A stretch of DNA of 64,000 bases from Barthelona sp. PCE (Eukaryota), in contig JAUFOR010000004.1 of the NCBI GenBank assembly GCA_040285745.1, positions 186,001 to 250,000 of the forward strand, written 5' to 3'. Made by a program: the position numbers and the translations under genes. Position 1 is the stretch's first letter, and each line of letters begins with the position of its first letter. The notes beneath the pieces were generated by a model, which had not been told where the DNA came from, ran no database searches, and saw only the letters and a list, made by a program, of their open reading frames with translations. Below, in pieces: positions 9,001-26,422 of the stretch.

Positions 9001-12000
9001 CCATTGTCAATGTTACTATGTGTTTTGCTGATGATGATTACCTACCCGCTTACGATGCATCTGGTTCACAGGGTTGCTTCGACGCATCTGAATACACCAG
9101 AATTATTTCTGATGGTTCTGTCGTTGCCTCTGACATCTATGCACCATCAATGTTCACGATTGATGGTCTTTCACCAAGTGCTACTGTAAGCATGAGTAAC
9201 ATCGATGATACGAGCGCTCTTGGTAAGGTCTTGCGCTTCAAGATCCCTGAAATCCCGTACAGTGACATTCTTTATGTCGACGTTGGTGTTGAACTTGAAA
9301 TCACAACAGGTTCTACTCAGACTGTCAACCATCATATCATCAGTGGTATTCACGTGGAAGGAAAGACGATCATTCGACAGTCTACCCCGACCAAACCTGA
9401 TGACTCCTCTGTCATGACTATTCTTTTAGTCGTACTTGTACTCATGATGTTGACTGTTCTGGCCTATGTATTTGTCATTCGTCCCAGACGAAAGAGAAAG
9501 CTTCTCACCGGAACAAAGAACGGTACTGATGTCGCAGCTATGCTTGATACAATCAAGAATCAGCCAGAGGACGAAATTGCTTCGGATGCTGAACGTCAGA
9601 TGAAGTCAAGCGTTTCTCTCAAGGAGCTACTTACTGTAGCTAGCTCTGTTGGTCGTCTTCAGGCTTCTCGTTCTGTTGCCAACATGACTCGTGCCAAGGC
9701 CATGCGTCTTGCTGAGCAGCAAGAGGAACGCGCTAAGTCCGGTGATCCACGTTTCAAACGTCTTTACAGTCAGCTCGGATTCGGTACACCCGGAGACGAC
9801 GACTATCTCGACCAGACACTGGAGGATAGCATTGAGGGACAGGAGATCGCTAAGGATATCCTCGAATCGCATGAGTTCCCGAACATGCCATCTGTGGCCG
9901 ACCTTAATGTTTCTGAATCTACTGTATTCAACGTTCTTGACGATCCTGAAGCAAACTTGCCTCAGATTATTGATGGAGACGACAAGAAGAAGAAGAAGAA
10001 ACGTCGTAAGAAGAAGGGTCGTACAACAATTCTCCCTCAGCTTTCAACATTCGATAATGATGGAAACAGTGGTCAGGATCTTTTCCAGGAGCTGTTCGAT
10101 CCTTCTTCAAAGATTGAGGATGAAGACGATGACGTTGATAGCTATATCAATACTGATTTTGCTGAAATCATCAAGAAGGTAGTTGACGCTCATGAATTGG
10201 GCGATAGTATCACACTTGAACCCCACGAGCTTCGCTCTGTGTGCCGTATGTGTATCACAATTTCACCTTACGCTTTCCGTGATGAGGAGGCTCAGTTGAT
10301 CGAAAACCTTGCCGACGCATGGCACGAAGGACGTTCTGAGTACGTAGAATTCAATGACGTTTCAGCCCTAGCAATGTTCATTGCTGTTGATGAAGGTCTT
10401 CCTTTCGCCAAGGATTCAGACAAGGTCGTTGCTAAGCTCAGCCTTGGTCTCACATTCTCAATCAGAAACGCTTCCACAGTTGTTCTCACACCTGTGGAAG
10501 TTGATCTACTGACACAGGCAGTCAACTCTACTCCTATGAGCCGTTTCACAACTCAGGATTGTGAAATTGCAGCCAGACTGGCCAGATCAAGCTTCGCCAA
10601 CATTGAACTGGAGCTCGATTCGTCAGAGGCCGAACGCATTATCCGTATTCTTCGCTTTACGCGTATCTACGGTTATGATGTTCACGATCCTTCTGTTGAT
10701 AAGTTGCGTAACATGTTACATGACAACGCTACTATTCATCATCGCAACACTACCCTTTCACCCGTTGAAACTGAGCGACTTGCCATTGTCCTTTCAAAGG
10801 TTCCTATCGATGGTCTCAAGCCCAAACAAGCACGTGCTGTTACCGAACTGATCAAGGCCCGCAACTCCGGTGCCCCAGTTTCACTCGGACCCAAGCGTGC
10901 CTACCGTGTTGCCTCTGCTATCAAGATGATCATAGAGCAACCTTCCCTGGTCACACAGGGATCTATGATGCGCATGGACTCTTCAGTTGGTCTTATTGGT
11001 CACGGCGCCTCACGCTCATCGTTGAGTTCTGCCGGTTCTATGAGCAACGTGCGCTCCTCTGCCGCCCTGTCTCCTCTTGCTCGCTCTGCGTCAATGATGC
11101 TGACAGGTACAGTCAAGGCTAAGCAGCTTCTCAGGAAGCAGCGTAAGCGTCGCAGCGGATCAGCCACATCACGCGGCTCTACCAGTTCGATCGACTCACT
11201 AGTCACTGATCCTCTGGCTGAGCTTAAGGAGAAGCTTACCAAATACGTCACTCGTATGCAAGCTGCTACTCTCCCCACCAATGATGTTGACGCTCTTGTC
11301 CGCGCCTTTGAATCAATGGTTTCCAACGATCTGAATGCCGAACAAGTTGACGTCATTCAGAAACTCGTCAGCATTCAAGACAGTGGAGCACCTCAGATCT
11401 TCTCAGTTCGTGAGATGCAGGCAATATTGAACGTTGTTGAAGGCTCAACATTCTCTGCTGATGCTTTCAACTACGTTTACACCGAGCAATTTGAGGTACC
11501 TACCGCGATGGACCGCTCCGAGCTACCGTTCGTGCATAGCTTCCTTCAAACTTTGGACAAGAGCACCTTCAACGCAAACGAAGTTGAAGTGTTCGACGAG
11601 GTTACCAGCGAGTATTGGTCGAGCAACAGTGGCGCTGTTAACTTCACGACTCGCCAATCTAATGCACTCTCTCATCTACTCAACCGTGTTTCCGGTGTAG
11701 GTGAGACAATTGTTAAGAAGCTGCGCAATGAGACAGCTGAAGGACTCAACGTCGAATTGACGAATGAAGAACAGTTCATCATCACGAGTGTAGTCCCCAT
11801 TGATAAGCTTCAAAAGAGCGATGGCTTGAGCCCTAAGGAGAAGGCTATACTTATCCGACTCAACTCAGCCGCCAAGACAAGTGAAGAACTCTCGTTCAAC
11901 CCTGTCCAGGCTGAAATTGTTGGCCGTTTGCTCCGCGACGCCACACTTCCTCGCCGTCTCAAGTCTGTTGTTCTTGATTTCTCAGCTTCAAAGCTCGTTG

Positions 12001-13133
12001 ACTCCATTGAAGCTCGCAGACTCAACAATGTGATTAACCGATATCTCGAGATTGACTCATCTGCATCCCTCTCCAAGGATGAAGCCAAGCTCATTACCAG
12101 TCTTAGCGTTGCAGCTCAGAACGGTTCATCAGTTTCTATTGGTGCTAGCAAGGTTAACGATCTCACATCAATATTTGATCGTTGTCTGAGTGAGTTGAAC
12201 GCTGCTGTTGATTTCTTTGCTTCAAAGATGAACGTTGACCAGTACATTCTCCCTGGTTCAAAGGTTGGAGACATACTACCGGTGCTCAAACAGTTGCCCG
12301 TGCCTCTTCTTTCACGCGATGAGGCTGACATCATCGGTGTGCTTCAGCACGCTGCTGACAATAAGAGCACTGCACCTCTTGGTGGCACTCAGATTAACTC
12401 CGTTGCGGCCATTCTCGAGAAACTGCTCGAGAAGCCCAAGGTCCTTGATTCTGATGACACCAACATCGACGCTACAAACCAGTTGCATAACGTAATTGTT
12501 AAGAGCCGTCGTTCTTTGGCTGAAGCTGCTAACACCAGCGTATCATTTGAGGATATTGTCAAGGATCCAATTATTAAGAACGTTATGGCTGAACTCTTCT
12601 TCTCACGCGAATCGCAAAGCTCTGTTACTCTCCAAGTACCTAAGCTTGAGAAGCTCACCATGTTCGTAGGCCAACTCCACACCGGATCTCTTTCCGAAGA
12701 CGTCCGTGAACTCATTAACGAATTGACCGCTGCAGCTAAGGCTAAGCGATCACTGCGTCTTGATGAGGAGAAGGTCATTCTGCTTCATTCGACGCTCGTC
12801 GATCACATGATGAAGCGCCCTGACGTTGACACGTCACACCTTCAGTTCAATGGTGCTACAGAATCGAGTACACCTACTTCCAGACTGAAGTTTAAATCTG
12901 CCGTTCAAGGTTTGGTTGATCGCGCCAAGTTAAACAACTTAACTGGTAAATCTGCCAAGGCTGAAGAGGATGAAGAGGAGCCTGCTTCTCAGTTCTCTGA
13001 TCTTCTTAGTAAGCTTCGTGATCAAAAAGATGAGGGTCCTAACGCTATGGCTTTTGCCCGTGCCGTTAGATTGGCTGGCTCTCAACGTATCTCACTTTCT
13101 AAGGATGAGTTGCAGAAACTTAAGGATAATTAA
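1..13133 (+). CDS. Giant (>4370 aa, probably 5'-partial) single-pass surface protein: Gly/Thr/Asn-rich beta-helix-like repeats, EGF-like and PSI modules, one TM helix, long cytoplasmic tail
   Basis: ORF 21..13133 is open back to the window edge (ggt aaa atc act ggt gat ATG) and has no signal peptide at Met21, so the true start is probably upstream. EGF-like CFCNYGFEGETCS, PSI-like CVSHQFCGWCKSSDTC, hydrophobic VMTILLVVLVLMMLTVLAYVFVI (~9411-9480) followed by basic RPRRKRK. Confidence 0.85.
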   Translation, partial: GKITGDMVVSAPLVDLGSGSYNPVFIGSGSIEAEVLGFNRASVSIANWEILVLNETSFDSQTLTVSSLFTLGADCVVSVTDTCDLRGPDNTKLVYKNLGSFTLDGAFTAYIDGFHNLKTFDMINGVTLVPLSFTNSKTLTVDATSTINMNSYSGQNVKFSNVWGSVLITDGAIEMVHANTVFDLQGSLTIQGVGSVSVQAGELNIFDSSSITQNSPIVVHSTGDIIVPWTDQTVNLGDITVNSGGTLRMNADATVDNLIVENGQIYINTTFSVVSSGDLRADAILTGPGKWHSDASVSVTADPVHLRVPLVIGDGASLTVEPSGHLMLEVNAAIENPDADFVNNGTITSIAHTTQSTYNISSLVQANGALNVHGDIRVCNLDIEGGTITLVGDLNPYCNLNMRGGILLGAGQIRGPFEFAVVGGKYFAVATKFYLETGAVAYVEDGVLDCQEGFELRTEDASTPLRITGPNGVITFTPKTDPTEEFIIDTIEQLDGTLDIAAPLRVSKLLESKGGAVNITSELVIESDFTLDGASMTGVGGGKWTVESAAKATIISGSFDGPFDTNIEGLVEMKGTLNINQPFNLTVSPGTFSVLYGTISSHSAGVNFIVASGGELLTNNYQDLLFQTDNDDSHLVVEVGGKWSLNSIRKTVVKWPTLIEGEVNCYGSKLSFESDSMTTGDWYINKDCVIELKSGEHNVTDTGRFIGNGTVELSSIFNLNGTNDLNDATRGFFIKNGVFNLYTSSSCPGVIQQNGGTLDFEAKTDPYHVGTLILSNGAVFTNTEDVIIDSALKLYDATLHLIKNMIVNASFLVQDGTIENIGTLSVYKGMIWNNGIISGSAITLNISSDVSFSGVMTLNDAPTINLIEGTWFHSSGVINVGAGSVFNVYENATFALGTITTYVMAGINHNFNVYGELLVQTTGTFQLKWKMNLKPTGKILCDTGRLLLSTDSVHNGTWEVTSDCDIAFISGEHKLNPSLHVFGGGLVETIAATIHVYTDVNLETRGFLINDTFADVYVYADAGFSGVLTLKKGDIQAVEGNITVGTFDCLDGKVQQSAVNPTTIITQGNVLVDGCHWKVPPISTLMINSTLHNHEDISDNGLIHVLPDGVAFYHVTSFENPVLVDGIFNLPSGEVSLDSTFTINPQGTLFLSDNAVLTASFAGLFNSFGTVSVYSGGVALLQDLYVGGFINLPNNANLTIVNTELVDCNVNMTSNGYLLVDIGVDNAIRDSNFTGGNVVFTTTDSDLQARLGGINSTNTLWTIYGGSVLLDDSFIDVNVLDPVFRVYGGSLRLSFISADTHQIGTLLIDGGSVEIDHPTEIIGNATLYSGDIGGSSQLNVSGLIWHGGSLNLVAPIYAIDLMDIDVVGFPINLEGLTFYNLGDCVWSNGNVTASTGRLYNYGNFTLLADNSQFVLDEETPQTRFINFGNLIKTSSTITQIEGLRNEGNITVLEGRLSLSKLSEVNNGNINIYNSGSLAFEGGEHILQADIGGDTSGYVVTSGEHTSLTVRGSLDISSITAESGTTYVEHDGATTNPNMNVTILDGVLYMSPSGSASTPGKINTLKVFGGEAIVSGTTLAKRVEIDDGTLRITSELGVDDDVVLLKGDVVGNGTLNGTCSIDASNPISEELVSLSMNVECGGNLIVGKNGPVILDLHEPFTHQTTGLFQVESGSTVNIKAPASSGFEYEVGNIILQDGLINVEEGMYNVVLRSSSMTVNNANANMYFARDGTISADVTQLLTCDTITGDGIIAADDLLMTECDISGSVLVDTRLLEIDGTPSMYDSSRLDAEDATFTNGILSLSSSAVLSIENSGTFTNNDFSITADGDNFVYNYGTITIPSTNNNVRIDRVENYGVLTHDGNSLVLRGGSFTNGTLTVQGPITFDIGTHIIYGAGVTFTMADAVTIEGTLRLDQCDVALSNVISFGSATATLQLANGAYLHNIASTLDITNGIFSFKGSVESTIDELAIFGGGKVELEAGSYGHITRLDLYDELKSNGQLRVDTLRWYAGSLTAEGTTIVESDLEFGNGVKDIKQDHRLAINMTTYDWNAGTFSIYDDAQFIVGSECTLNIGQAVTLSMDSDSQFVVEGNLNMNTVNDVVIPTMSVDSDSTVDVSKGTLIIGHGSSIYGTLSVTSSGHLILKNSIKMNEDASISVASGAGFTLMTATVELNERSSLTVSSIHLAGSTLRILDNSTVTTTSIETDSGSNSIEGSDMLSVTSLTMNANLILRTLRVVVTDTFTWNSGNIQLYDGAVLVLPTGSTFEDKSDGVIMQSATNPGMFIIEGEYIKSSGTSTISSRGIVNGTIDISGGSIRIDADTEGGLDVQGPLTMSSSASINVVAGWFNMTDTAALLGNVQTSGEDARLYVNGRISLSNPLMVNFGRFIIDSSAIIDTSGVDAVTVNVDFCADLGLSYETKSSSTEWYYYCEEQGVHVVNYHPSTNSYGKPYIGAMKLMKGAAHFHTDAIIGELTLGGTGHIHIPVRTTNVTNNIATGGFTDLTNGLFFRNTGEGHFVGRGTITLNHGYCKPDECFCNYGFEGETCSQDCSSYTVDTDCVSHQFCGWCKSSDTCLVASITTGTPLVDTCEEFYYGTIEHCDGVLEAWPANPVSPDMIFGFSNSKQKFMFTIDYNYIRGGVTFVADMTSYDPSRDIFVPNVCENRDANTLRHHAYSDFDTTAPHASISQAVGSNYIAYPSGGSFWSLTNRSCSETRYSAQFSFSDIFGCVDTSSSSVSPLIAEKVNNNTGFFSVYGTMYFTGIDPRSGLDDVIKGTWSRPFTYQFNLGGRGVELQECSMETDDCNVINDFTSNYKFSNASIQTIYMNNVNGSDYLTLSIVIDTVADDAQRRYRLKEFESPSGLDFSVDMDHLGRVDYQRWTINMNVSASDNITHPYEFVGTYGLAFYIQTKCITIAQCEDLQSDLYLKFKFNMRAIKMPTFDSVADEGTGIIFYQQSILGHTSSVNMLDSNVGPYEADKLINAKIFTLLDPISNMLTDNARVEMTIVNVTMCFADDDYLPAYDASGSQGCFDASEYTRIISDGSVVASDIYAPSMFTIDGLSPSATVSMSNIDDTSALGKVLRFKIPEIPYSDILYVDVGVELEITTGSTQTVNHHIISGIHVEGKTIIRQSTPTKPDDSSVMTILLVVLVLMMLTVLAYVFVIRPRRKRKLLTGTKNGTDVAAMLDTIKNQPEDEIASDAERQMKSSVSLKELLTVASSVGRLQASRSVANMTRAKAMRLAEQQEERAKSGDPRFKRLYSQLGFGTPGDDDYLDQTLEDSIEGQEIAKDILESHEFPNMPSVADLNVSESTVFNVLDDPEANLPQIIDGDDKKKKKKRRKKKGRTTILPQLSTFDNDGNSGQDLFQELFDPSSKIEDEDDDVDSYINTDFAEIIKKVVDAHELGDSITLEPHELRSVCRMCITISPYAFRDEEAQLIENLADAWHEGRSEYVEFNDVSALAMFIAVDEGLPFAKDSDKVVAKLSLGLTFSIRNASTVVLTPVEVDLLTQAVNSTPMSRFTTQDCEIAARLARSSFANIELELDSSEAERIIRILRFTRIYGYDVHDPSVDKLRNMLHDNATIHHRNTTLSPVETERLAIVLSKVPIDGLKPKQARAVTELIKARNSGAPVSLGPKRAYRVASAIKMIIEQPSLVTQGSMMRMDSSVGLIGHGASRSSLSSAGSMSNVRSSAALSPLARSASMMLTGTVKAKQLLRKQRKRRSGSATSRGSTSSIDSLVTDPLAELKEKLTKYVTRMQAATLPTNDVDALVRAFESMVSNDLNAEQVDVIQKLVSIQDSGAPQIFSVREMQAILNVVEGSTFSADAFNYVYTEQFEVPTAMDRSELPFVHSFLQTLDKSTFNANEVEVFDEVTSEYWSSNSGAVNFTTRQSNALSHLLNRVSGVGETIVKKLRNETAEGLNVELTNEEQFIITSVVPIDKLQKSDGLSPKEKAILIRLNSAAKTSEELSFNPVQAEIVGRLLRDATLPRRLKSVVLDFSASKLVDSIEARRLNNVINRYLEIDSSASLSKDEAKLITSLSVAAQNGSSVSIGASKVNDLTSIFDRCLSELNAAVDFFASKMNVDQYILPGSKVGDILPVLKQLPVPLLSRDEADIIGVLQHAADNKSTAPLGGTQINSVAAILEKLLEKPKVLDSDDTNIDATNQLHNVIVKSRRSLAEAANTSVSFEDIVKDPIIKNVMAELFFSRESQSSVTLQVPKLEKLTMFVGQLHTGSLSEDVRELINELTAAAKAKRSLRLDEEKVILLHSTLVDHMMKRPDVDTSHLQFNGATESSTPTSRLKFKSAVQGLVDRAKLNNLTGKSAKAEEDEEEPASQFSDLLSKLRDQKDEGPNAMAFARAVRLAGSQRISLSKDELQKLKDN

Positions 13134-16059: not shown

Positions 16060-16175
16060 TCTAAGATATTTTTGATTCGTAAAAAATGTTGTATAAAAGA
16101 TAACAAGACCTGAATATCAAATAAATGTAAATTTGTTCTTGTAAAAGAGCAAAAAAAAACTAAAGCGATTTTTAT

Positions 16176-16449
16176 GCTGAAACAAAGCGGTGACATACAG
16201 GCGCTAGCCTTCAGACTTTATACTTGAGGTAGTAAACAGCGGAGGGGGACGAAGCGAACCGTCATGTGTAGTAGGTGTCCGTAGGACCCGATACGGTTTT
16301 TCTTACCTTTTTCAAAAAAAAAAAGGTTTTAGGCCACTTCCCGGACGAAACACCCTCTACACGTGAAGGCGAGCCTTCCCACGTGAGCGTTCCCCGACGT
16401 CAATAAACCTACTTCAGTATAATCAAAACCAAACATCACAAGTTTCAGC
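16176..16449 (+). ncRNA. Candidate 274-nt rod-like structured RNA or fold-back element
   Basis: Nested inverted repeats: 16176-83/16442-49, 16218-24/16416-22, 16226-32/16409-15, 16244-51/16388-95, 16262-71/16357-66, 16277-81/16342-46, 16305-12/16320-27. The non-Watson-Crick pairs in these stems are G-U on the + strand. Confidence 0.55.
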
Positions 16450-16595
16450 CTTCAAAGATAAGGACATTTGCCATAAACTGTTTAACAGAAAAAATTTATA
16501 TCTTCTTATCAACAAGTTATATGCCGATAATCTTGAAGAACAAGTTATAAATGCTCAGCTGATCGTAAACAAGAACTGGAAACAAGCAAATTCAT

Positions 16596-19500
16596 TTATT
16601 CAGTGGTGTTTTCCTCATGATCAGGGCGAATGATTGGGCGAATGTAAGGCTCGATATCCTTCTTGGATGCAATCCTCTTGGTGCCGATGCGGAAAGCTGA
16701 AACCGAATCACGAGACATACTGGTGTAATAAGTACCTGCGCGAATCATATCCAAGAATCTGGTCAAAACATTGAAATATGAAGTGTCTGAGACACGAGCA
16801 CGTAAAAATGTCTCAAGAGGGATGCGATCGATATAAGAAGAAGGATATAGATAAGTACCACTGTAACCAATACCACCATCAGTGAACACCTTAAGCATAA
16901 TCGTCATCCATCTTAGCTTTAAGCATGACTTCAAATCAGAGTCCTCGATCAATTTCATGGCCTTGCACATATTATCTACCGTCTCAGAACGAACTTCAAC
17001 GTACATGAGTGCACCTAAGAGAGAAAAGTGATTGCCGTTGTAAGAAATGTGAGGTAGCTTCAATTCGCCACTGTAAAGCTTGAGAACTGCCTTAATGGCG
17101 GGAATGAGCTCATGGTAACCAGCGATAAATGTCTTCCACCAAACCTCTCCGATATGGAAGCCATCGATCTCGTTGTAACACTCAAGCATGAAAGTAGAGA
17201 TGGTTCTGAAGAACTCCCGTGTGAGAGCAATATCGTCCTTCAGATAGTACTTGCACACATCAGTAAGCTTCTGAGCAACCAAATTGTTGTTCAAGAAAGG
17301 CACATACAACTGGTGGGTGCGATCGCGGGCCTTTGCCAGGTGCTGCTCGATAGAAACAGTGAGGTTCTCGCGGAAAGTGTCCTTGAGAGGCTCGAGCATC
17401 TTTAGGAGGCGCTTGCTATCACGACGCTGAGAGAAGACGAGGCAGATCATCTCGGTGAAGCGGCTGAAGTAGCGGAAGATGGGCTGGGCGTACTGCTCAC
17501 AGAACTGCAGGAAGCGGTCAGGGAGCGATACATTAACAAGAGAGTAACCTTGGTTGTGAAGAGAGGCATTAATGATGGAATTAAGGACGATCTCGACGTT
17601 CTTGTAGTCGGTACGAGTGTCACGGAACTCCTTCTCCATGATGGGGCAGAGCCAGTGGCCAACAACACAATTGAAGGCATCGTTCCAGTGCTCGGTGCCG
17701 ATCTTGTTGTAGAGGAAGGTGATGAACTCAACGATGCGCTCGACAATCACAACAACACCGTAGAAACGGCGTGCAGCGAGACCGACGAGCTGCCAGTACT
17801 CACTCTCGAAAACGGAATCGCTCCATCCCTTGTTGAGCATGAGAGAGATCTGATCAACGGCGAAGTTGAGCAGAACAAGACGGACATCGACTGCCATGGT
17901 CTCCTGGTCCCACATAACCTTTAGGAAGGCGGCGGGGTTAACGCCAGCGTTCTGACGGGATAGTGCCTGGACAACACCGATAATCATCTTCATGGGAGTG
18001 ATGCCGAAGCGCCACTCATCGGAATATGCGAGAGCAATGAGATCATCGAAAAGACGCTTCTGCTCCTCGACAGACGTGTGCATGACATATCCCTCGAGAA
18101 GAGTGCGTACGAAAGGAGCAGACTTGGGGATGGTGAGGGCAGTGAGAAGCGCGGAGCGGGCCATCTCAGCGAAAGAGAGATCGGTGAGGCACATAATGCG
18201 GCCGAGGATGAAGATGACGCGCTTGAAGAGCTCAAGGATGTTTGAGTTGGTGAAAGCACGGTTGGAAAGGTGTGTGAAGCCAATGATGCGCTTGACGAAC
18301 TCTTCATTGAGGAAGGTTGTGGAGAAGCGAAGGGAGAACTGCAGAGTACGGAGCATGTTGTTAATCTCGTTCAGGTCCAGGGTGCTGTTGATCAGATCAG
18401 AGATGCTCTCGACGAGGTCACGGCGGGACTGAAGCATCTCCTTGTACTCAGCTTCGGCCTCCTCATCCTCGATGTCGCGGTCACTCATCTCAGAGATATC
18501 GCGGTCGAGCTCCTCGAGATCGGCGTAAAGACCGAACAGCTTGTCGAGGGGATCAAAGTAATAAGCAATCTCATCGCGAACCTGGATAGCAAGGGAATCG
18601 AAGCGCTCAACGTTAGGGATGTCATAAACGGAGCTGATTCTGTACATCTTGCTAACGAAGTCACTGCGAGTAATGATACGGCTGTTCGTTAAGGGGTCTT
18701 GGTAACCCTTGACAACCTTGTGGCGGGCCTTGGGGCGAGCAATGGGATAAACCTTGTCTGGTCCGGGCATATCAGTGGCGTCGACACAGAGCATCCTGAG
18801 GGCAGTGAAGGTGCTGCCGTTACAGAGGGAAATGTACTGGTCAAGAGAGTATTGACGCACAAGTTCTTGGTTATCAAAGCACAACTGTTTCTCCGCATAG
18901 TTCCAAACACGGCGGCTGATAAGCGTATGAATTAGACTATTGAAGATGTGCTGAAGAATAGACATATCAGTGCTGGCTGTGGCTTGACGAGCAAGAAGGC
19001 CATCAATGACGTAGCGATAGCATTCTTCAGACACGTAGTTGACGATCTTGTTGTACTTATCGTGACGCTCATGAGTGCTGTTGTTGCGCTTATCATCGAG
19101 GTTATAAATAGTGTAACATTTACCACGCTCGAACCTGTGAGGTAAGATAACGTAAGGTAGTTGTGTGTAAAAACTGTGATGGTTGATAAGAGCGTATCTG
19201 ATGAAAGTGTCTGCGCACTCATTGCGCTTCTCAACCTTCTCATCGTAGATATCAGCAATCTCCATCATCTTGTCAAAGAAGTGCTTCATGTGCTCAAGAG
19301 GGAAGAAATTAGGAGCAATCTTGTGGTTGACCATAAACTGGTACAAATTCATTGACTTGTAGATGTAGTGCATGATCTCATGATCAATGTTGGCGATGAA
19401 GTACTCAGCGAGGTTGTCGACTGTCTCAGGCTTGTAGAAGAAGGGACTGTGATCATAATCGATATTGATGTAACAGTAAGAATCCTCAGGAACACGACCG

Positions 19501-21011
19501 ATAATGTGAGGAGTAACGGCCTTGAAGGTATCCCACTCTGTCCAGTCGCCGGTGCAGATGAAACGCTGGAGCAAACGGTAAAGCGTAGCGTGGGCATCGG
19601 TGTGGAGAAGTCCGTTCTTGCCAATGAAAAGGTACAAAATGTGGGAAACCTCATAGGTTTTACCAGAAAGACGAACGGTGTATTCGGGTTTGGGGGTGGT
19701 GGCACACTCAAGAGTGACAAAATTCAAGATGGTGCCAACCTGGTTGCTGAGATGCTCGGGCTTATAGTAACGGTCCCAATACTCTTCCTTCTCAAGCTGA
19801 ACATACAGGTGGTTGGCCAATGCATGTCTGAACTTATCAAGACCTGGGAAATAGCTGTGAGGATTCTTTGTTGAGGCAAAGTATTCACTGATAGTATACC
19901 AATCACTAATAACGTTACCTGTTTCCTTGTTGTAAGTATCCTTGACAGCAGTGTATTTGTACAAATTGGATTCGTCGAAATAACACTCAAGCAAACGCAT
20001 GAAAAGACTGCCAGGTTCGGTTGAGAAAGCAATACCCCTCTCACGATACTGGCTTCTGAAAGAAGATATTGACCTAAAGCTGCGATATTGAGCTGATTTG
20101 AATGCCTTAACAGCAATATCATCACCGTGATACTTGATGAAGTAAGGCATCATCTCCCAGTAGGTTGAATAAGTGTAGACCTGAGCCTTGAAGAGCTCAT
20201 CAATGAAAAATTTCGGCTCTTCGACTGCGAATTTGTGCATAATACGATTTAAAAGTTGTGATTTATGCATCTTGGATGAATTGCAAAGATATGCAACAGA
20301 GTGAATGTTTTGTCCAGATTTTATGCGGTCCAAAAAGATCTCACGAGACTTTTCAGGGGAATTAAGCACGTAGTTGTTGAAGCGGTAATGATTATGGGTT
20401 GAACCATAAAGCTGACTATCGTTATTCTTGTGCATAGCATCAGTATAAATATCATAGACAATTTCATAGAAACGAGGCTGAATGAACTCAAAGGGAATAC
20501 TCTTGCTGACGTTGAACTTATCCAGAATGTACTTCTTGGCAACGGTGGGTGAAGCGGCAATGTAGAGAGTACGCAGCTGCTTACCGCTCAAGAGCTGGTT
20601 CCATGCAGGATCGCTGATAATTGCATCAGCAATGGCTGTGTAGCGTCCGTTCTTACCGTAACGAGACAACTGAGAGAGGTATCTTGCTCGAAAAGCAACA
20701 GGTGCTGTTGAGAATACCTCAAGCAGGTTCTCCTTGGTGATCATGTGGTGAAAGAACTTGGGCTGTGTCTTGAACAGATTGGCAATGTACTTTCTGACCC
20801 AGCTGGTCTTTGTGCTGGCTGACATTCCAATCTGGTAGACTTCGTCGTAACGTTTCTTGGCGATGCTGAGATCCAAGTATATGCGCTGGGCCTTGAGAGA
20901 CGGGATGTCTGAGAATGTAATAGCATCTAAATCAATAGCGGAACTAAAGAGTTGACTGAAAAGCTCGTTATAGCGTAAATCAGCAGAGATGAGGGTTAAA
21001 AAGTTATCCAT
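16596..21011 (-). CDS. Large (1471 aa) aromatic-rich, probably alpha-solenoid hypothetical protein
   Basis: Long uninterrupted ORF; first in-frame ATG at 21011 (MDNFLT); strong codon bias in the middle part; no catalytic motif recognised. Confidence 0.8.
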   Translation of the reverse strand: MDNFLTLISADLRYNELFSQLFSSAIDLDAITFSDIPSLKAQRIYLDLSIAKKRYDEVYQIGMSASTKTSWVRKYIANLFKTQPKFFHHMITKENLLEVFSTAPVAFRARYLSQLSRYGKNGRYTAIADAIISDPAWNQLLSGKQLRTLYIAASPTVAKKYILDKFNVSKSIPFEFIQPRFYEIVYDIYTDAMHKNNDSQLYGSTHNHYRFNNYVLNSPEKSREIFLDRIKSGQNIHSVAYLCNSSKMHKSQLLNRIMHKFAVEEPKFFIDELFKAQVYTYSTYWEMMPYFIKYHGDDIAVKAFKSAQYRSFRSISSFRSQYRERGIAFSTEPGSLFMRLLECYFDESNLYKYTAVKDTYNKETGNVISDWYTISEYFASTKNPHSYFPGLDKFRHALANHLYVQLEKEEYWDRYYKPEHLSNQVGTILNFVTLECATTPKPEYTVRLSGKTYEVSHILYLFIGKNGLLHTDAHATLYRLLQRFICTGDWTEWDTFKAVTPHIIGRVPEDSYCYINIDYDHSPFFYKPETVDNLAEYFIANIDHEIMHYIYKSMNLYQFMVNHKIAPNFFPLEHMKHFFDKMMEIADIYDEKVEKRNECADTFIRYALINHHSFYTQLPYVILPHRFERGKCYTIYNLDDKRNNSTHERHDKYNKIVNYVSEECYRYVIDGLLARQATASTDMSILQHIFNSLIHTLISRRVWNYAEKQLCFDNQELVRQYSLDQYISLCNGSTFTALRMLCVDATDMPGPDKVYPIARPKARHKVVKGYQDPLTNSRIITRSDFVSKMYRISSVYDIPNVERFDSLAIQVRDEIAYYFDPLDKLFGLYADLEELDRDISEMSDRDIEDEEAEAEYKEMLQSRRDLVESISDLINSTLDLNEINNMLRTLQFSLRFSTTFLNEEFVKRIIGFTHLSNRAFTNSNILELFKRVIFILGRIMCLTDLSFAEMARSALLTALTIPKSAPFVRTLLEGYVMHTSVEEQKRLFDDLIALAYSDEWRFGITPMKMIIGVVQALSRQNAGVNPAAFLKVMWDQETMAVDVRLVLLNFAVDQISLMLNKGWSDSVFESEYWQLVGLAARRFYGVVVIVERIVEFITFLYNKIGTEHWNDAFNCVVGHWLCPIMEKEFRDTRTDYKNVEIVLNSIINASLHNQGYSLVNVSLPDRFLQFCEQYAQPIFRYFSRFTEMICLVFSQRRDSKRLLKMLEPLKDTFRENLTVSIEQHLAKARDRTHQLYVPFLNNNLVAQKLTDVCKYYLKDDIALTREFFRTISTFMLECYNEIDGFHIGEVWWKTFIAGYHELIPAIKAVLKLYSGELKLPHISYNGNHFSLLGALMYVEVRSETVDNMCKAMKLIEDSDLKSCLKLRWMTIMLKVFTDGGIGYSGTYLYPSSYIDRIPLETFLRARVSDTSYFNVLTRFLDMIRAGTYYTSMSRDSVSAFRIGTKRIASKKDIEPYIRPIIRPDHEENTTE

Positions 21012-21090
21012 CTTATGTTTGCCAACAAAAATAAGTGATAAGGGATAGAAAAAGAGTTTGAGTTTGTAAGAATTTTGAATTCTCCTCAAG

Positions 21091-21458
21091 ATGGTAAATG
21101 TGTTTGGTTCGCCCAGGCAACACTCAGCAATGGAAGAATTTGAGCATTGGCCAAGCTTTGAATGTGGATACTCATCAAGATCAAACGTTGTTTCACTGTA
21201 TTAGAACGCAGGGCCGCTTGCTCGCCCACAAAACTCGGTGGGGCAGACACGAATGTGCCGTAAAAGCACAACACAACGTGAATTTTTTTCCAGACCTGTG
21301 AAGGATTAGGTCCGATAATCATGTGCTGTACGAGCATAAATGCTCTGACAAGCACCCATCAAGTCAGAGATTACCATTTACTTGTTCAAGTTGACAATTC
21401 TTAGAAATGAGTTCTAAACCATCGGCTTCAGATGGCCTTGCAAAGCTTTATAATTGCA
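21091..21458. ncRNA. Candidate multi-hairpin structured non-coding element
   Basis: GC-richer spacer with about 8 adjacent hairpins and a long-range ATGGTAA/TTACCAT inverted repeat (21091-97/21371-77). Confidence 0.35.
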
Positions 21459-21531
21459 GAGTGCACGCAGTCTATAAGCATAATAAGTTTCGAAATGTCT
21501 GTTCTGTCCAGAGAGTAAATGAACGCGATTA

Positions 21532-23448
21532 TTAAAATGATTGTAAGTTAGTAATGTCTAACAATTTTTGAGTTGCTTGGTTTTTTGTTGGCAGTGGGTC
21601 ATATATATTAGGCGAACTAGATGCAGTTCTTTTTTGAACAAAATGATCAAATTTTGTGGCTGTAATTTCTTTTGGCTTTGAATGAATCCTGCACTTAACT
21701 ACGTTATCTTCCTTTTTCAATATAATCGTCACTTTGCCATCATTAACATCTTCTATACAGCCATTAGTGTTCTCTTCAAAGTGCTTAAAATCAGCTACTT
21801 TTTCATCATCAATTCCATACGCCTTAAAAAGTGTGTGCAATGTGCTTTTAGCATTAATACCAATCAATTCAGGTGCATTAAACCAATAGACGTCTTGATG
21901 TTTCACTTGAGAAGAGCTTAATAACTCATTCAAGTTTTTAGGAAGGCTGTTAATCATGTTTCTTTTGGAGTGAATGCCTGATGTAACAATCATTAAGTTA
22001 CGTTCAATGGCATACGTACTAATGATGTTGTCCTCTGAACCATGATGAGGAGCAACCATAATATTCACTGGTTGAAAGTAACCACCAGGACAAAAATTTT
22101 CCATAATTCTTTTCATTTCCATATCACCAGTGAAAAGGATACGTCTAACTTCACCTTCCTGTAGAAATTCAACTTGAACAGCAAAAGAACTTTTGTTTTC
22201 ATCTTGATTATAAGGTGGTACAAAAAGCGTAATTCTTGATGACATGTCAACCTTTGTATGAACTGAATATCCTTCACAGTCAAATAATTCACGCTCTTCA
22301 AAACCCTTAAAATGCCAATCTTCTGAACACCTCTGTATCAATCTAAACTCTTCACAATCTTCAGAATTATTATATAATGATTTAATTCCTGCAGTGTTTC
22401 CTGTATGGTCTTCATGCATGTGAGTATGATACACTTCAACATGCTCATCTTCCTTCTTTTTCAGTATTCCTTTTTCTTTGAGAAACTCTGCTACACCTCT
22501 ATGTTTTTTACCTGTGTCAATTATTAGAACTTTATCAACATCTTTGTAATCTTTAATGCGCAAGACACAGAATGTATGAATGGAAGAAATAGGAAGAGTT
22601 ACAATGTGAGCTTGAAATTCCTTTATAGAGATGAATCCGTATTTCAAACGTTCAAACTCATTATTCAACTGATCACTCCAATAAGACAGCTTCTTTTTTA
22701 ATTTTTCAAACTGATGATTATGGTCTTTAAACTCTAAAAAAGCTTCTTCAAATATTTTAATTAAACTTTGTGCTTCATTTAATGATTTCCTTGGATTAAA
22801 ATGCATGTTAATAAACTTTTGACATTCATTTAGCTTTTTCTTGCACTTGTTTAGCTCATCTAAACAGTTAAAAAACGTTGAAACAGAATTTTTTACGTAT
22901 GTAAAATAAGAATAATCTGGAAATGATAGTTTGTTAAGAAAATCTTTCCTTATGCTTGAAGCATTGGAATGTAACTGTAACAGCAATTCATCTTGCAGAA
23001 ATCTATTCAAAACTGATTTAAAGATATTCACTGCTTGAACGTGAAAATTTTGATACATATCTTCATATTCATTCAGCTTTCTTTTCAAATCACGAATATT
23101 AACGTCACCTATTTCAGTTCCCTTATACTCATTAAATAAACTGTCCACCTTATTAAAGAGGTTATTGTAATTATCTGCATCCTCAAAAGAATAATCATCA
23201 TTTTTTGGAAACAAGAATTTTTTTTGCTTTCCTCTATTTTCAACCAGTTTCTTAAAGTGCTTGAAAGTTTCATACAATGTACCATAATTTTCTTCACACT
23301 TTAAAAAAGCAAAGTAACACGTAACGAAGAGATTACTAATTGCTTCATCATTTTCATAAATAATTATTTGAGCTCCTTTAATACGGAAAAGCAGGTTCTC
23401 AATGTCTTTTAGCCATTTTTTGAAGAAACAATTCTCTGAATTAGACAT
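21532..23448 (-). CDS. Coiled-coil + ComEC/Rec2-like metallo-beta-lactamase-fold hydrolase (probable nuclease)
   Basis: IIDTG, HTHMHEDH (HxHxDH), LFTGD and PHHGS motifs in the ComEC-MBL order; clearly more AT-rich than neighbouring genes. Confidence 0.8.
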   Translation of the reverse strand: MSNSENCFFKKWLKDIENLLFRIKGAQIIIYENDEAISNLFVTCYFAFLKCEENYGTLYETFKHFKKLVENRGKQKKFLFPKNDDYSFEDADNYNNLFNKVDSLFNEYKGTEIGDVNIRDLKRKLNEYEDMYQNFHVQAVNIFKSVLNRFLQDELLLQLHSNASSIRKDFLNKLSFPDYSYFTYVKNSVSTFFNCLDELNKCKKKLNECQKFINMHFNPRKSLNEAQSLIKIFEEAFLEFKDHNHQFEKLKKKLSYWSDQLNNEFERLKYGFISIKEFQAHIVTLPISSIHTFCVLRIKDYKDVDKVLIIDTGKKHRGVAEFLKEKGILKKKEDEHVEVYHTHMHEDHTGNTAGIKSLYNNSEDCEEFRLIQRCSEDWHFKGFEERELFDCEGYSVHTKVDMSSRITLFVPPYNQDENKSSFAVQVEFLQEGEVRRILFTGDMEMKRIMENFCPGGYFQPVNIMVAPHHGSEDNIISTYAIERNLMIVTSGIHSKRNMINSLPKNLNELLSSSQVKHQDVYWFNAPELIGINAKSTLHTLFKAYGIDDEKVADFKHFEENTNGCIEDVNDGKVTIILKKEDNVVKCRIHSKPKEITATKFDHFVQKRTASSSPNIYDPLPTKNQATQKLLDITNLQSF

Positions 23449-23672
23449 TAACTAAGTGATAAAAGATTAAAAATATTAAACACCCACTTTTTTGGTTGAA
23501 GCATATTATTGTTGTTCGCCTTCTCTCGTTCATTAATGTCATGACCCATGTCATATCATTTGTAAAATCATTCTGAACTGAAAATTTTTTTGTGAATGCA
23601 AATCTCTTTATAAATGGTGTTTTTAAGCCATCTGTCAATTCTAAATCATTTTTCAGAAGGTTACTATTTACC

Positions 23673-23935
23673 AACCCCAGTCTTTATTCTCTTCCCGAGT
23701 CTCGTTAACAGGTTGTAGGGCCTGGATACCTACTGCTCTGCGCTGGGGTTTATCCATGCTGGCTGAGGCCTGACATTGTTCTGCACTACATCAATAAAGA
23801 CGTTTAAAACCCATCAGCACTCAGAATAGGGCCTGTAGGGCTTGCCTTTGGGAATATATGAGATTGTATTGGTGATAGTGGAGGGATGCGAAACGCGTTT
23901 TTGCTCCTCCAATAGCTCTCTCAACTAAACTCTCA
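23673..23935. ncRNA. Candidate pseudoknot-containing structured element, possibly the long 3' UTR of the 442-aa ORF
   Basis: Nested stems 23680-88/23793-801, 23714-18/23786-90, 23719-23/23766-70, 23724-28/23751-55. Loop sequence CTGGGGTT (23743-50) is complementary to flanking AACCCCAG (23673-80). Confidence 0.45.
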
Positions 23936-23953
23936 AGTGTGAAACTCATCATC

Positions 23954-25282
23954 TCACCTTCTCCTGCCCCGCCGACTCCTCCTGGTTTTCTTCCGTTTGA
24001 AATCCTCAGGGGGGGCGACGTAGAGCTTCGGAGAGTTGGGGAGGTGTCTGACAAGAAAATTTATCTCATTCACACAACTTGCAATAGCTGAGGTGTCGGT
24101 TTCCGAGATTTTTTCCAAGGCCTTCATGAAATCAGAGTTTCTATGGCCGATCCAGCGGCTGATGGTGGCGAGCATGACGGGGCGATTTTTCTCCGAGACT
24201 TTGTCGCTGCCTATGACTGCCATCAAGTCTAGGATACAGTGGAGGAATGCCACTGGGACTGCAGTTTTTAGACGACTAGCGTGGTATTGTCTTCTCTTCC
24301 AAGAATTTTCAGGGTTGCCGAGGACTCTAATGCTATTGTTTATGGTTTGGTGCCAAAATAAGGGGTTAGAGTTGATCTTATTCTTGTCTAGGACGGCTTC
24401 AATCCCCGGGAAGCTTTCACAGTTGTAGTAATCTGTTTGGCAATACCTGAAAATTAATTCGAGTACCGCATTCAGTTCTTCCAAGGCTGGCTCGTCAGGC
24501 TTGGGCTGCTCCGTCAGCAGGGTAATGAAGTTGTTTATCCTTTCCATGGCCTCGGGGTCAAATGGGCGGGCAAACGCTTTCGCCATGGCTGGGTCTGTGC
24601 CTTGTGATACAACGAAGGTGGGAGCGTCTTGCTCCATCAGCGCTTCCTCGACATACCGGGATATGTCGCCCGAATTCCCCCTGAATGTAGCGTTAATCTC
24701 TTCACGCATTTCCATGATGTCACTCATGGGCAGGGGTTTGAGGACCGCCTCAAAAGCGGCCTCATCGAAGTCACTGGTCGCCTGGAGCTTCCTACGTGCA
24801 CCCCGTGCAAATTTCCTGACACGGTCGTGCAGAGGATACACAAGCTTAAAAAGCATGTCCCAGGCATTTTGTGCGACTCCCGAACACGACCTCCTAAGGT
24901 CGGTTGTTGCCTTTCTTATTTCGGCCGCGGTGGCCTCCGCGGTGGGCATGCCCATAAAGAGAAGCAGTAACGCGTACTTCTCCCTTTCACCGTCCTCGCT
25001 GCTGCCTCTGTCCCACACCGCGGTGGGGATGGGCTCATTGTGGTTTAGCAGCGGGATCTCATCTACAGTGTGCACCAGCGATGCCAAGAGGACGGGTAGT
25101 ACACTCTTGCACAGGTGGGACGCTTTCTTGAGCTTCCAGAGCTCTGGACTATCCTTGAGGCTATACATGGCCTCAAAGACCATCTCTGCCATGTCCACGA
25201 CCCTCCTCACGGGCTCCTTGTAGTCTGTTTTTAAATTTCTAAAACTTAAACATTCTATTCCCTCATTTACATAACTCGACAT
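23954..25282 (-). CDS. Orphan 442-aa helical protein with a basic C-terminal tail
   Basis: ATG ORF; body GC-rich relative to flanks; ends KRKKTRRSRRGRRR; no family recognised. Confidence 0.65.
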   Translation of the reverse strand: MSSYVNEGIECLSFRNLKTDYKEPVRRVVDMAEMVFEAMYSLKDSPELWKLKKASHLCKSVLPVLLASLVHTVDEIPLLNHNEPIPTAVWDRGSSEDGEREKYALLLLFMGMPTAEATAAEIRKATTDLRRSCSGVAQNAWDMLFKLVYPLHDRVRKFARGARRKLQATSDFDEAAFEAVLKPLPMSDIMEMREEINATFRGNSGDISRYVEEALMEQDAPTFVVSQGTDPAMAKAFARPFDPEAMERINNFITLLTEQPKPDEPALEELNAVLELIFRYCQTDYYNCESFPGIEAVLDKNKINSNPLFWHQTINNSIRVLGNPENSWKRRQYHASRLKTAVPVAFLHCILDLMAVIGSDKVSEKNRPVMLATISRWIGHRNSDFMKALEKISETDTSAIASCVNEINFLVRHLPNSPKLYVAPPEDFKRKKTRRSRRGRRR

Positions 25283-25487
25283 TGAACAAAGGATTTAAAT
25301 CTCAATGTATATCAATCTTTGACGGGTTATTTTTAAATTCAGGAAAGAAATCCTAAAACAGGTTGCAAGAATGGATTTGTTAATTAACTTTTTGATTGCT
25401 TTTTGATTCATTATTGATTGTTTTTTGATTGTTTCAATTAGCACTCCTAAGAGGTTTCCACATTGCTTTTCTCCTTTTTTTCTGATT

Positions 25488-25569
25488 ATCAGTGTGCACC
25501 GAGCGGTTAAGGGGTGGGTCTCAAGATCCCATGCGTAATGCATCGCAGGTTCGAATCCTGTCACTGATA
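25488..25569 (+). tRNA. tRNA-Leu(CAA)
   Basis: Acceptor ATCAGTG/CACTGAT plus discriminator A, D-loop GAGCGGTTAA, anticodon loop CT-CAA-GA, long variable arm TGC-GTAAT-GCA, T arm GCAGG-TTCGAAT-CCTGT, followed by a T-run terminator. Confidence 0.9.
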
Positions 25570-25581
25570 TTTTTGCCTTTG

Positions 25582-25627
25582 CTTTTTTACTGCCAAAATA
25601 ATATCTTTTTTACTGCCAAAATAATAT
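25582..25627. repeat. Perfect 23-nt tandem duplication between the two tRNA genes
   Basis: CTTTTTTACTGCCAAAATAATAT twice (25582-604, 25605-627). Confidence 0.9.
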
Positions 25628-25635
25628 TATAAAAA

Positions 25636-25709
25636 TATTGAGACCCGGATTTGAACCGGGGACCCCCTGCGTGTTAGGCAGATGCTCTAACCAACTGAGC
25701 TATCCCAAC
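25636..25709 (-). tRNA. tRNA-Val(AAC)
   Basis: Reverse complement reads GTTGGGA TA GCTC AGTTGGTTA GAGC A TCTGC CT-AAC-AC GCAGG GGGTC CCCGG TTCAAAT CCGGG TCTCAAT A, followed by TTTTT. AAC (IAC) is the eukaryotic-type Val anticodon. Confidence 0.95.
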
Positions 25710-26422
25710 ATCTTTCGACGGAAATGATATGACTGTAATGTCTTTAATTTTTACCTAAATCAAAAAAATGAAAGTAGTAAAAGAAGGACCTAGAGCTTAA
25801 AAAAGGCTTTAAACGTACTGTTAAGCCATTTTTAAAGCTAATAATTTGTCAAGAAAGTCCCTAATTATTCATAAAAAAAAGATTATAAATATCACCATTC
25901 TTTTAAATTATGTTAATTTATAATGTTAATTTATAATCTATATTATATATCTACCATAAGAGAGAAATAATTAGATAATTAGTGGGATATACGTTAAGAA
26001 TTTTTATAAACTTTTTTATAAACGATTCTATGCCACTTTATAATACAAAATACAATTAAAAACAAACTTTTAATTGATATTTTGCTTATATATTAAGTAA
26101 TGATATTCAACATTAAAACCTGCTTAAATTTCTAATCTTTTTCCAAAATTTTTCTTATGAGTTTTTGTTCTTAATTTCGTATGTAAGCATCGTAAATAAT
26201 TGTTATAGGAGTATTTATGAGATAAAAATTGTTGAATATGTAATCAGGGAGTAACAACTTCAAAAAATCTTGTACTTACCATTAACGGTGCAAAATTTTG
26301 GAAATATTGGTTAAATCTATAATAGTAATGATGTTTATATCATTAAAAAAGGTACCATTGTATTGAAGGGACGAATAACTTTTCTCTTCTATTTCAGGTT
26401 ATTTACTTTCATAATATTGAAA

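Follow-up and report, generated by a model that had tools for sequence, protein, structure and literature searches.

The 64,000-nucleotide stretch analysed here, which we call the window (G000:C4:186001-250000), comes from the 10.2-Mb, eight-contig genome of the free-living metamonad Barthelona sp. PCE. Positions 16176 to 25709 of the window hold three minus-strand genes, encoding proteins of 442, 638, and 1471 amino acids (aa), each followed by a GC-richer non-coding element (A, B, and C, respectively), close to a pair of tRNA genes. A preliminary description proposed that this block is an acquired island of protein-plus-RNA modules. Our analyses suggest that it very probably arose through separate, independent events within a compact protist genome, and that it comprises retrotransposon and duplication debris of known kinds.

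These events can be reconstructed from homologies, repeat layout, copy numbers, orientation, and folding scores, with their order and the direction of the duplication being the more conjectural parts. An old tyrosine recombinase (YR) retrotransposon of a family denoted here as family 2 would have landed near the tRNA pair and then lost its 3' repeats, most of its repeat A, and almost the whole of pol, such that open reading frame 1 (ORF1) and a pol stump remain. Next along the block would come a metallo-beta-lactamase (MBL) gene belonging to a small host family, and then a kinase-gene fragment. The 1471-aa gene and 280 nucleotides (nt) of its flank would represent one copy of a recent segmental duplication, within a host family whose paralogues appear to exchange sequence. 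Finally, a young family-1 YR retrotransposon would have inserted in the opposite orientation and been reduced to a solo A+B unit. The features of the block are as follows.

16189-16422, plus strand: element C, solo A+B unit of YR retrotransposon family 1 (99-100% identity to A2B2 ends); A is 16189-16322 and ends in a run of A, B is 16325-16422
16589-21291, no strand assigned: 4.7-kb duplicated segment (99.3% identity over 4703 nt; copy at G000:C4:83432-88134)
16596-21011, minus strand: 1471-aa gene, GC 0.47, alpha-solenoid (HEAT/ARM-like) of a lineage-specific family (paralogues, profile search, structure model)
21012-21291, no strand assigned: proximal part of element B, upstream flank of the 1471-aa gene (sole other copy is the duplicated one)
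21435-21533, minus strand: distal part of element B, decayed protein-kinase fragment (82-93% DNA identity, three loci)
21532-23448, minus strand: 638-aa gene, GC 0.31, ComEC/Rec2-like MBL-fold protein (motifs, weak profile matches, paralogues)
23710-23935, minus strand: element A, deleted and decayed ORF1-pol junction and start of pol (72-75% identity to six family-2 copies)
23954-25282, minus strand: 442-aa gene, GC 0.51, ORF1 of YR family 2 with intact frame (79% identity to ORF1 at G000:C6)
25283-25361, minus strand: family-2 5' leader with the last 33 nt of repeat A (89-92% identity to six leaders)
25487-25570, plus strand: tRNA-Leu(CAA) (Rfam match)
25635-25710, minus strand: tRNA-Val(AAC) (Rfam match)

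The outline of the block given in the preliminary description is accurate. Coordinates and GC confirm the sizes and the GC contrast of the three ORFs, the tRNA pair said to lie about 200 nt away begins 204 nt from the start of the 442-aa gene, and the three spacers (505, 520, and 536 nt; GC 0.37-0.41) rank second to fourth in length among 27 spacers and are among the most GC-rich. The GC contents of the elements themselves are 0.47, 0.44, and 0.47. Our searches again found neither a sequence common to elements A, B, and C nor a flanking target-site duplication, as had been reported.

Element C is a solo unit of a family-1 retrotransposon

Element C shares 99-100% identity with the A2B2 ends of the five full family-1 elements, and its A|B junction equals their A2|B2 junction. 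All five full copies share the same layout, in which A1 is followed approximately 5.6 kb later by B1 and then directly by A2B2; the A repeats (133-134 nt) and the B repeats (98 nt) are 100% identical. These elements are 6.1 kb long, exhibit >99% identity in three pairwise comparisons, and encode a 498-aa ORF1 followed by a pol of up to 1324 aa that matches the reverse transcriptase (RT) profile PF00078 (E 1.3e-14) and, below the curated cut-off, the recombinase profile PF00589 (E 0.002).

A DNA search of the genome with positions 16150-16470 returned 41 matches, 24 of which (the window included) cover most of the 234-nt core. Five of these 24 near-full AB copies terminate full elements and 19 are solo, with two of the 19 unchecked for adjacent internal DNA. 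Among 25 loci that were checked, 20, including element C, have no family-1 internal DNA within 1.5 kb, and the other five are the full elements. Inspection by eye of 30-nt flanks at 30 loci revealed fixed element ends and no repeated target. Element C lies in the orientation opposite to that of the three genes, and its copies adjoin many unrelated genes. The solo unit most likely arose by recombination between A1 and A2, in the manner of a solo long terminal repeat. A contig from public sequencing run X1, possibly derived from the same material as the assembly, holds a family-1 internal-to-B junction; five contig pieces of the run cover 6 of 30 bins, which says nothing on expression.

Separately, an ATG at 16174-16188 (plus strand) lies just ahead of element C, and a 57-codon open frame follows it at 16424-16594. 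Together these may represent the 5' portion of a small host gene, interrupted by element C and truncated by the 4.7-kb duplicate; a search for the coding origin of 16424-16594 found no paralogue.

The 442-aa gene is the ORF1 of a family-2 retrotransposon

The 442-aa gene matches six other loci in the genome. At one of them, G000:C6, the homologue is a 447-aa ORF1 preceded by a 140-nt repeat A and followed by an RT frame (E 2.9e-10), a frame with a putative RNase H (RH) and YR, B1, A2, a spacer, and B2. Since this homologue sits within a full YR element, the 442-aa gene is identified as family-2 ORF1. Family-2 repeats are approximately 140 nt (A) and 113 nt (B), with A2 and B2 separated by a spacer, and solo units of this family (A, spacer, and B) were observed at G000:C8:243691-244213, C5:242007-242533, and C1:598489-599012. 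The position of ORF1 and its basic C-terminal tail suggest that it is gag-like.

Element A maps within the RT ORF of family-2 copies, with its order and orientation relative to ORF1 preserved, and is broken by six gaps (85, 127, 22, 1, 4, and 20 nt), none of which is a multiple of three. None of 28 matches to the family-2 3' repeats lies near the 442-aa locus, and a search for a decayed repeat A up to tRNA-Leu yielded nothing significant (1888 and 595 of 2000 shuffles were as good). With its pol deleted, its repeat A clipped, and its 3' repeats missing, this family-2 copy is immobile. The predicted structure of the 442-aa protein is unusable (predicted local distance difference test, pLDDT, 33), the Atlas yielded no usable match for the protein, its sequence has no similarity to the ORF1s of family 1 or the other families, and no relatives were detected in metagenome contigs.

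The 1471-aa gene belongs to a recently duplicated segment that includes half of element B

The duplicate at 99.3% identity spans the 1471-aa gene, 280 nt of its 5' flank, and a few bases beyond the stop codon, with sharp junctions and without target duplication. It lacks element C and ends half-way into element B. Since the duplicate includes the proximal half of element B, this half belongs to the 5' side of the 1471-aa gene rather than to the 3' side of the MBL gene. A further copy of the gene, at 96% identity, has 48 nt of flank and carries neither element B nor element C. Positions 21089-21289 have no paralogue that would indicate a coding origin and no Rfam match. The distal part of element B has a different affiliation, in that the translation of 21435-21533 shares 21 of 32 residues with the C-terminal portion of a 258-aa ORF, which matches Pkinase (E 1.5e-20). 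Neither element A nor element B, as delimited in the preliminary description, marks a single unit. At three other loci (L032, L033, and L034, approximately 1300-1700), we observed protein-kinase genes or pseudogenes with about 400 nt in common and, in some, a 49-nt local inversion.

The 1471-aa family occupies at least eight loci in the genome, and a profile of it searched against 1.84 billion representatives returned six matches, all from Barthelona sp. PCE. Comparison of a paralogue (L028 2965-7338) with positions 17250-18750 of the window revealed 98-100% identity over 1.5 kb and approximately 55% elsewhere, a pattern that indicates recent gene conversion between distant loci. Against more diverged paralogues, the ratio of non-synonymous to synonymous substitution rates (dN/dS) is 0.30. 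A model of residues 1-1200 shows a confident alpha-solenoid and is nearly all helical (mean pLDDT 75.8; predicted template modelling score 0.52), and its best Foldseek matches are unrelated, generic HEAT-type solenoids with template modelling (TM) scores of approximately 0.15. No Pfam or PDB sequence match was found, and Atlas matches were <0.8. A viral origin of the protein was considered and rejected for lack of support (viral fold matches had TM scores of 0.15 or lower). Scaffolding or binding is the most likely role of the 1471-aa protein in the host.

The 638-aa protein is a member of a small metallo-beta-lactamase-fold family

The 638-aa gene is single-copy at the DNA level and has three protein paralogues at 32-45% identity in matched stretches. 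The MBL motifs D-x-G, H-x-H-x-D-H, G-D, and H-H-G-S are invariant, with H-x-H-x-D-H (343-348), D442, and H468-H469 conserved in all four paralogues. Profile matches are weak: Lactamase_B was detected at E 0.0017 (18.8 bits against a cut-off of 22.7) and ComEC_Rec2 at E 0.00077 (17.7 bits against a cut-off of 190), and ComEC and RNase J structures matched at E 0.003-0.005. No membrane competence domain was detected in the protein, and none of 8000 scored candidates was a homologue from beyond this genome. The motifs suggest that the 638-aa protein is probably a metal-dependent hydrolase and possibly a nuclease. None of the three paralogues is accompanied by element B sequence; one of them, by eye, is fused to a PH-like domain.

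Folding of the three elements

The three elements were described as strongly self-complementary, and this holds for element C, with folding z-scores of -3.43 on the plus strand and -2.15 on the minus strand. It does not hold for element A (+0.40/+0.70) or element B (-1.89/-0.81 over both strands; -0.27/-0.04 for its part at 21091-21291), which fold no better than shuffles. Among 13 random 234-nt windows folded on both strands, the mean was -0.02 (standard deviation 1.24), and 3 of the 26 folds fell at or below -2, with a minimum of -3.01; element C is therefore just modestly beyond background.

Folded singly, the A and B repeats of family 1 resemble shuffles (z 0.70 and 0.10), whereas their A:B duplex has a z-score of -5.1, with none of 150 shuffles as good. 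Element C thus folds because A and B are partly complementary, and its folding is a property of transposon ends, not of the adjoining gene. An older family-1 subfamily, 80-86% identical, retains the A:B rod. Pairing of A with B was also considered as a general rule and rejected, being weak or absent in the other four families (z +0.8, -1.2, -1.5, and -2.0).

A comparison of the spacers with known structured RNAs returned only the two tRNAs above the gathering and E-value thresholds of Rfam, and separate scans of elements B and C gave no match near threshold to small nuclear, small nucleolar, signal recognition particle (SRP), RNase P, or ribozyme classes. Motifs resembling RNase P/MRP, U2, SRP, hammerhead, and group I RNAs that had been noted by eye in the elements were dropped, as no model supported them. 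Covariation tests, which have low power with so few diverged copies, identified two pairs changed on both sides in element C (8 copies; 200 and 355 of 500 shuffles were equally high) and one of 41 pairs in the element A block (5 copies).

Tyrosine recombinase families across the genome

The genome hosts at least five YR families, and those compared share no DNA similarity. The preliminary description had reported no transposase or RT; both an RT and a recombinase do exist, but in full-length copies elsewhere in the genome, where 24 RT matches were detected. Full elements with the layout A1-ORF1-pol-B1A2B2 were delimited at five loci.

L014 799-6881: full YR element
L022 272-6683: full YR element
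L018 3250-9864: full YR element
L097 3411-9525: full YR element
L098 3539-9624: full YR element

Gene order in these elements is ORF1, RT, putative RH, YR. The ORF1s of the five families are unrelated or nearly so, and all have basic tails. The RT, RH, and YR regions can share a single frame of 1264-1662 aa in families 1, 3, 4, and 5, and family-2 RTs match PF00078 at E 2.9e-10 and 2e-11. All five aligned families have R, K, HxxR, W, and Y as recombinase residues without variation, and a profile built from these families detects Cre (E 0.008). Conserved DN..V and N..D..SRG stretches, which may be RNase H motifs, were noted by eye after RT in a region that the Pfam RNase H model does not match. 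Approximately 250 aa between the RH-like and YR parts are conserved in all five families (L014 4579-6630); this stretch has no Pfam or PDB match and no methyltransferase match, and may resemble a degenerate DIRS/PAT methyltransferase, with a possible likeness to the C-terminal part of the DIRS enzyme.

Nested insertions were also observed. The family-3 element at L018 3250-9864 lies in the ORF1 of a family-2 copy, at a point equivalent to 24222-24225 of the window; the copy belongs to a duplicated region, close to the beginning of contig C8, in which RT elements of a different type also occur. The last repeat of another family-2 copy (L013/L014) contains a nested family-1 element.

The window outside the block

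The window is dense in genes and almost without introns, and its eukaryotic genes include those for an RBBP4-like WD40 protein, a COMM-domain protein, and an EF-hand protein. The 4370-aa single-exon protein at 21-13133 is probably a surface protein, in which a long N-terminal region rich in beta structure, cysteines in an EGF/PSI-like stretch, and a single predicted transmembrane segment were noted by eye. An 895-aa protein at 56456-59143 appears by eye to combine a FIST-like sensory region with an adenylate/guanylate cyclase domain. The two tRNA genes of the block are separated by an exact tandem duplication of 23 nt at 25582-25627.

Alternative explanations for the block

Several observations weigh against an origin of the block in independent, ordinary events. 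The intact ORF1 frame beside a destroyed pol is poorly accounted for by plain decay; the co-orientation of three genes with similar spacers of 505-536 nt is read here as chance and clustering of insertions; searches did not identify the sources of 21091-21291 and 21292-21434; and the matches of the recombinases to PF00589 (E 0.002 and 0.018) are both below the curated cut-off. The same co-orientation and spacer lengths, together with tRNA proximity, the intact metal-binding motifs of the MBL protein, its faint resemblance to ComEC and an anti-phage MBL model (E about 0.0008, well short of the cut-off), and the folding of element C, would be expected of an acquired island of three co-working protein and structured-RNA units, such as an RNA-guided nuclease. 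We consider such an island highly improbable. The elements come from separate, ordinary sources, the folding of A and B resembles that of shuffles, Rfam matches and covariation support are absent, and GC at third codon positions differs widely among the 442-, 638-, and 1471-aa genes (0.62, 0.27, and 0.58). Outside family 2, no gene recurs with its downstream element: the copies of the 1471-aa gene lack element C and the MBL paralogues lack element B, which argues against a co-functional nuclease-RNA module. The notion of a composite acquired island survives to the extent that elements A and C and the 442-aa gene are pieces of YR retroelements; a single island and viral pieces are not supported. 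The idea that the tRNA pair served as an insertion target fared no better, in that none of the six other family-2 5' ends lies beside a tRNA in the flanks examined, tRNAs occur in 4 of 47 loci scanned, and no att-like or flanking repeat was found at the tRNA block. Proximity to tRNAs most plausibly reflects that insertions are tolerated in non-coding space.

The open frame of the 442-aa ORF1 allows two further explanations, one of which invokes a host function and is compatible with independent events as the best explanation for all other parts of the block. It is conceivable, though we think it unlikely, that ORF1 is a domesticated or helper gene, fixed and expressed beside the tRNAs and kept in frame after the loss of pol. 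An equally doubtful extension is that it acts in trans as a helper for ORF1-broken family-2 copies or as a dominant-negative, coat-protein restriction factor. All five gaps relative to the C6 ORF1 are multiples of three, compared to none of the six just downstream. The pol stump carries window-specific changes at 22 of 134 sites against 6 and 6 in the other two copies, and the insertion therefore looks old. ORF1 has a dN/dS of 0.50 overall and 0.11 in codons 1-110, and it is open at just two of seven loci. Moreover, three family-2 copies that are 99% identical to one another have common multi-base frameshifts in ORF1 and pol, which suggests that they spread in trans, without proteins of their own. 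Yet dS is also low in the 5' third of ORF1 (0.11; 6 window-specific changes over 592 sites), and low dS where identity is high fits recent gene conversion, which is evident between paralogues elsewhere in the genome; identity to the C6 ORF1 is a mosaic, running at 95-99% across the initial 450 nt and at 61-79% in the middle, and codons 220-330 and the 3' end of ORF1 diverge from the other copies by 20-40%. In the diverged middle, 13 synonymous and 39 non-synonymous window-specific changes are near neutral, a rough count given that the outgroup aligns badly. The low dN/dS may also date from the mobile phase, and the breaks in the C8 copy fall mostly in homopolymer runs and are possibly assembly errors, such that the figure of two intact loci in seven is soft. 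On balance, a host-kept, immobile, and expressed gene that still swaps sequence with its mobile relatives and acts as a family-2 helper or restriction factor is an improbable reading of these sequence patterns.

Alternatively, and with similarly low probability, the ORF1 copy could belong to a non-autonomous, ORF1-only subfamily, which lost pol while still mobile, and could have inserted recently and been clipped at both ends thereafter. This would yield an open frame beside a decayed pol without any host function, non-autonomous family-2 copies do occur in the genome, and the spread of ORF1-less Ngaro variants is described for Cafeteria (PMC8547959). However, no second copy of the ORF1-only structure was found, none of the 28 matches to the family-2 3' repeats is near the locus, and repeat A is mostly lost. 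We therefore continue to favor independent retrotransposon and duplication events as the origin of the block.

Comparison with known systems and implications

The block does not represent a protein-plus-RNA system, and the claim that had drawn attention to it holds no importance. Its components instead widen the known range of YR retrotransposons with split repeats and solo AB units to include a free-living metamonad. Searches of the literature, in which subscription papers were mostly uncovered and supplements excluded, returned no description of retrotransposons for Barthelona and none of DIRS elements for metamonads. The terms retro, DIRS, and Ngaro are absent from the main text of the genome paper on Barthelona and its relatives (PMC11316075), and the available portion of a preprint on Carpediemonas methyltransferases does not mention Barthelona or Ngaro. 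The YR families of this genome, at least five in number, were thus not found in the literature, although supplements may list them. Judging by titles and the openings of abstracts, no paper on domesticated gag genes of DIRS or Ngaro elements was on topic. If the 442-aa gene were host-kept, it would be the first domesticated gag-like gene from the DIRS order found in the literature searched.

One close likeness is to the Ngaro elements of Cafeteria burkhardae, which are approximately 6 kb long with the layout A1-[ORFs]-B1A2B2 and are accompanied by scattered solo AB repeats (PMC8547959). Both genomes feature a gag-like ORF1 followed by RT/RH and then YR, and in both, several unrelated types occur per genome and defective variants spread (PMC8547959). 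The Barthelona elements differ in that RT, RH, and YR may share one frame, RH and YR flank an additional conserved stretch, the A2 and B2 of family 2 are spaced a few hundred nt apart, and A and B are complementary in family 1. Further, no virophage was seen in Barthelona. Split direct repeats are also common to PAT-like elements (PMC7192593, PMC3266345, PMC9210276). In PAT, a methyltransferase follows RH, whereas Barthelona has a conserved domain at that point without a methyltransferase match. The comparison with PAT and Ngaro draws on features and published descriptions, and a search for reference sequences returned only the element's own annotation and two weak matches.

Element C resembles SIRE, the short dispersed repeat that equals the A2+B2 end of VIPER in Trypanosoma cruzi (PMC6681497), in which source a gag-like ORF1 is likewise assigned from position and a basic tail. 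VIPER differs in its gene order (gag, YR, RT/RH) and its restriction to kinetoplastids (PMC5146736), compared to ORF1, RT, RH, YR in Barthelona. A domesticated VIPER gene of trypanosomatids derives from the RT/RH protein and is syntenic across species (PMC5146736). Like the 442-aa gene, this VIPER-derived gene and Fv1, which derives from a retroviral gag, are intact element ORFs that became stranded (PMC5146736); the 442-aa case differs in that the gene is an ORF1 and remnants of pol are still attached. A stranded, intact ORF1 beside ORF1-broken mobile copies offers a natural test case for a protein whose role is assigned by position.

How the ends meet or how reverse transcription is primed is unknown for DIRS-1, according to PMC7192593. 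The complementarity of A and B in family 1 provides a hypothesis for the joining of ends or the priming of reverse transcription, in that these repeats pair end to end in the manner of the DIRS-1 inverted repeats.

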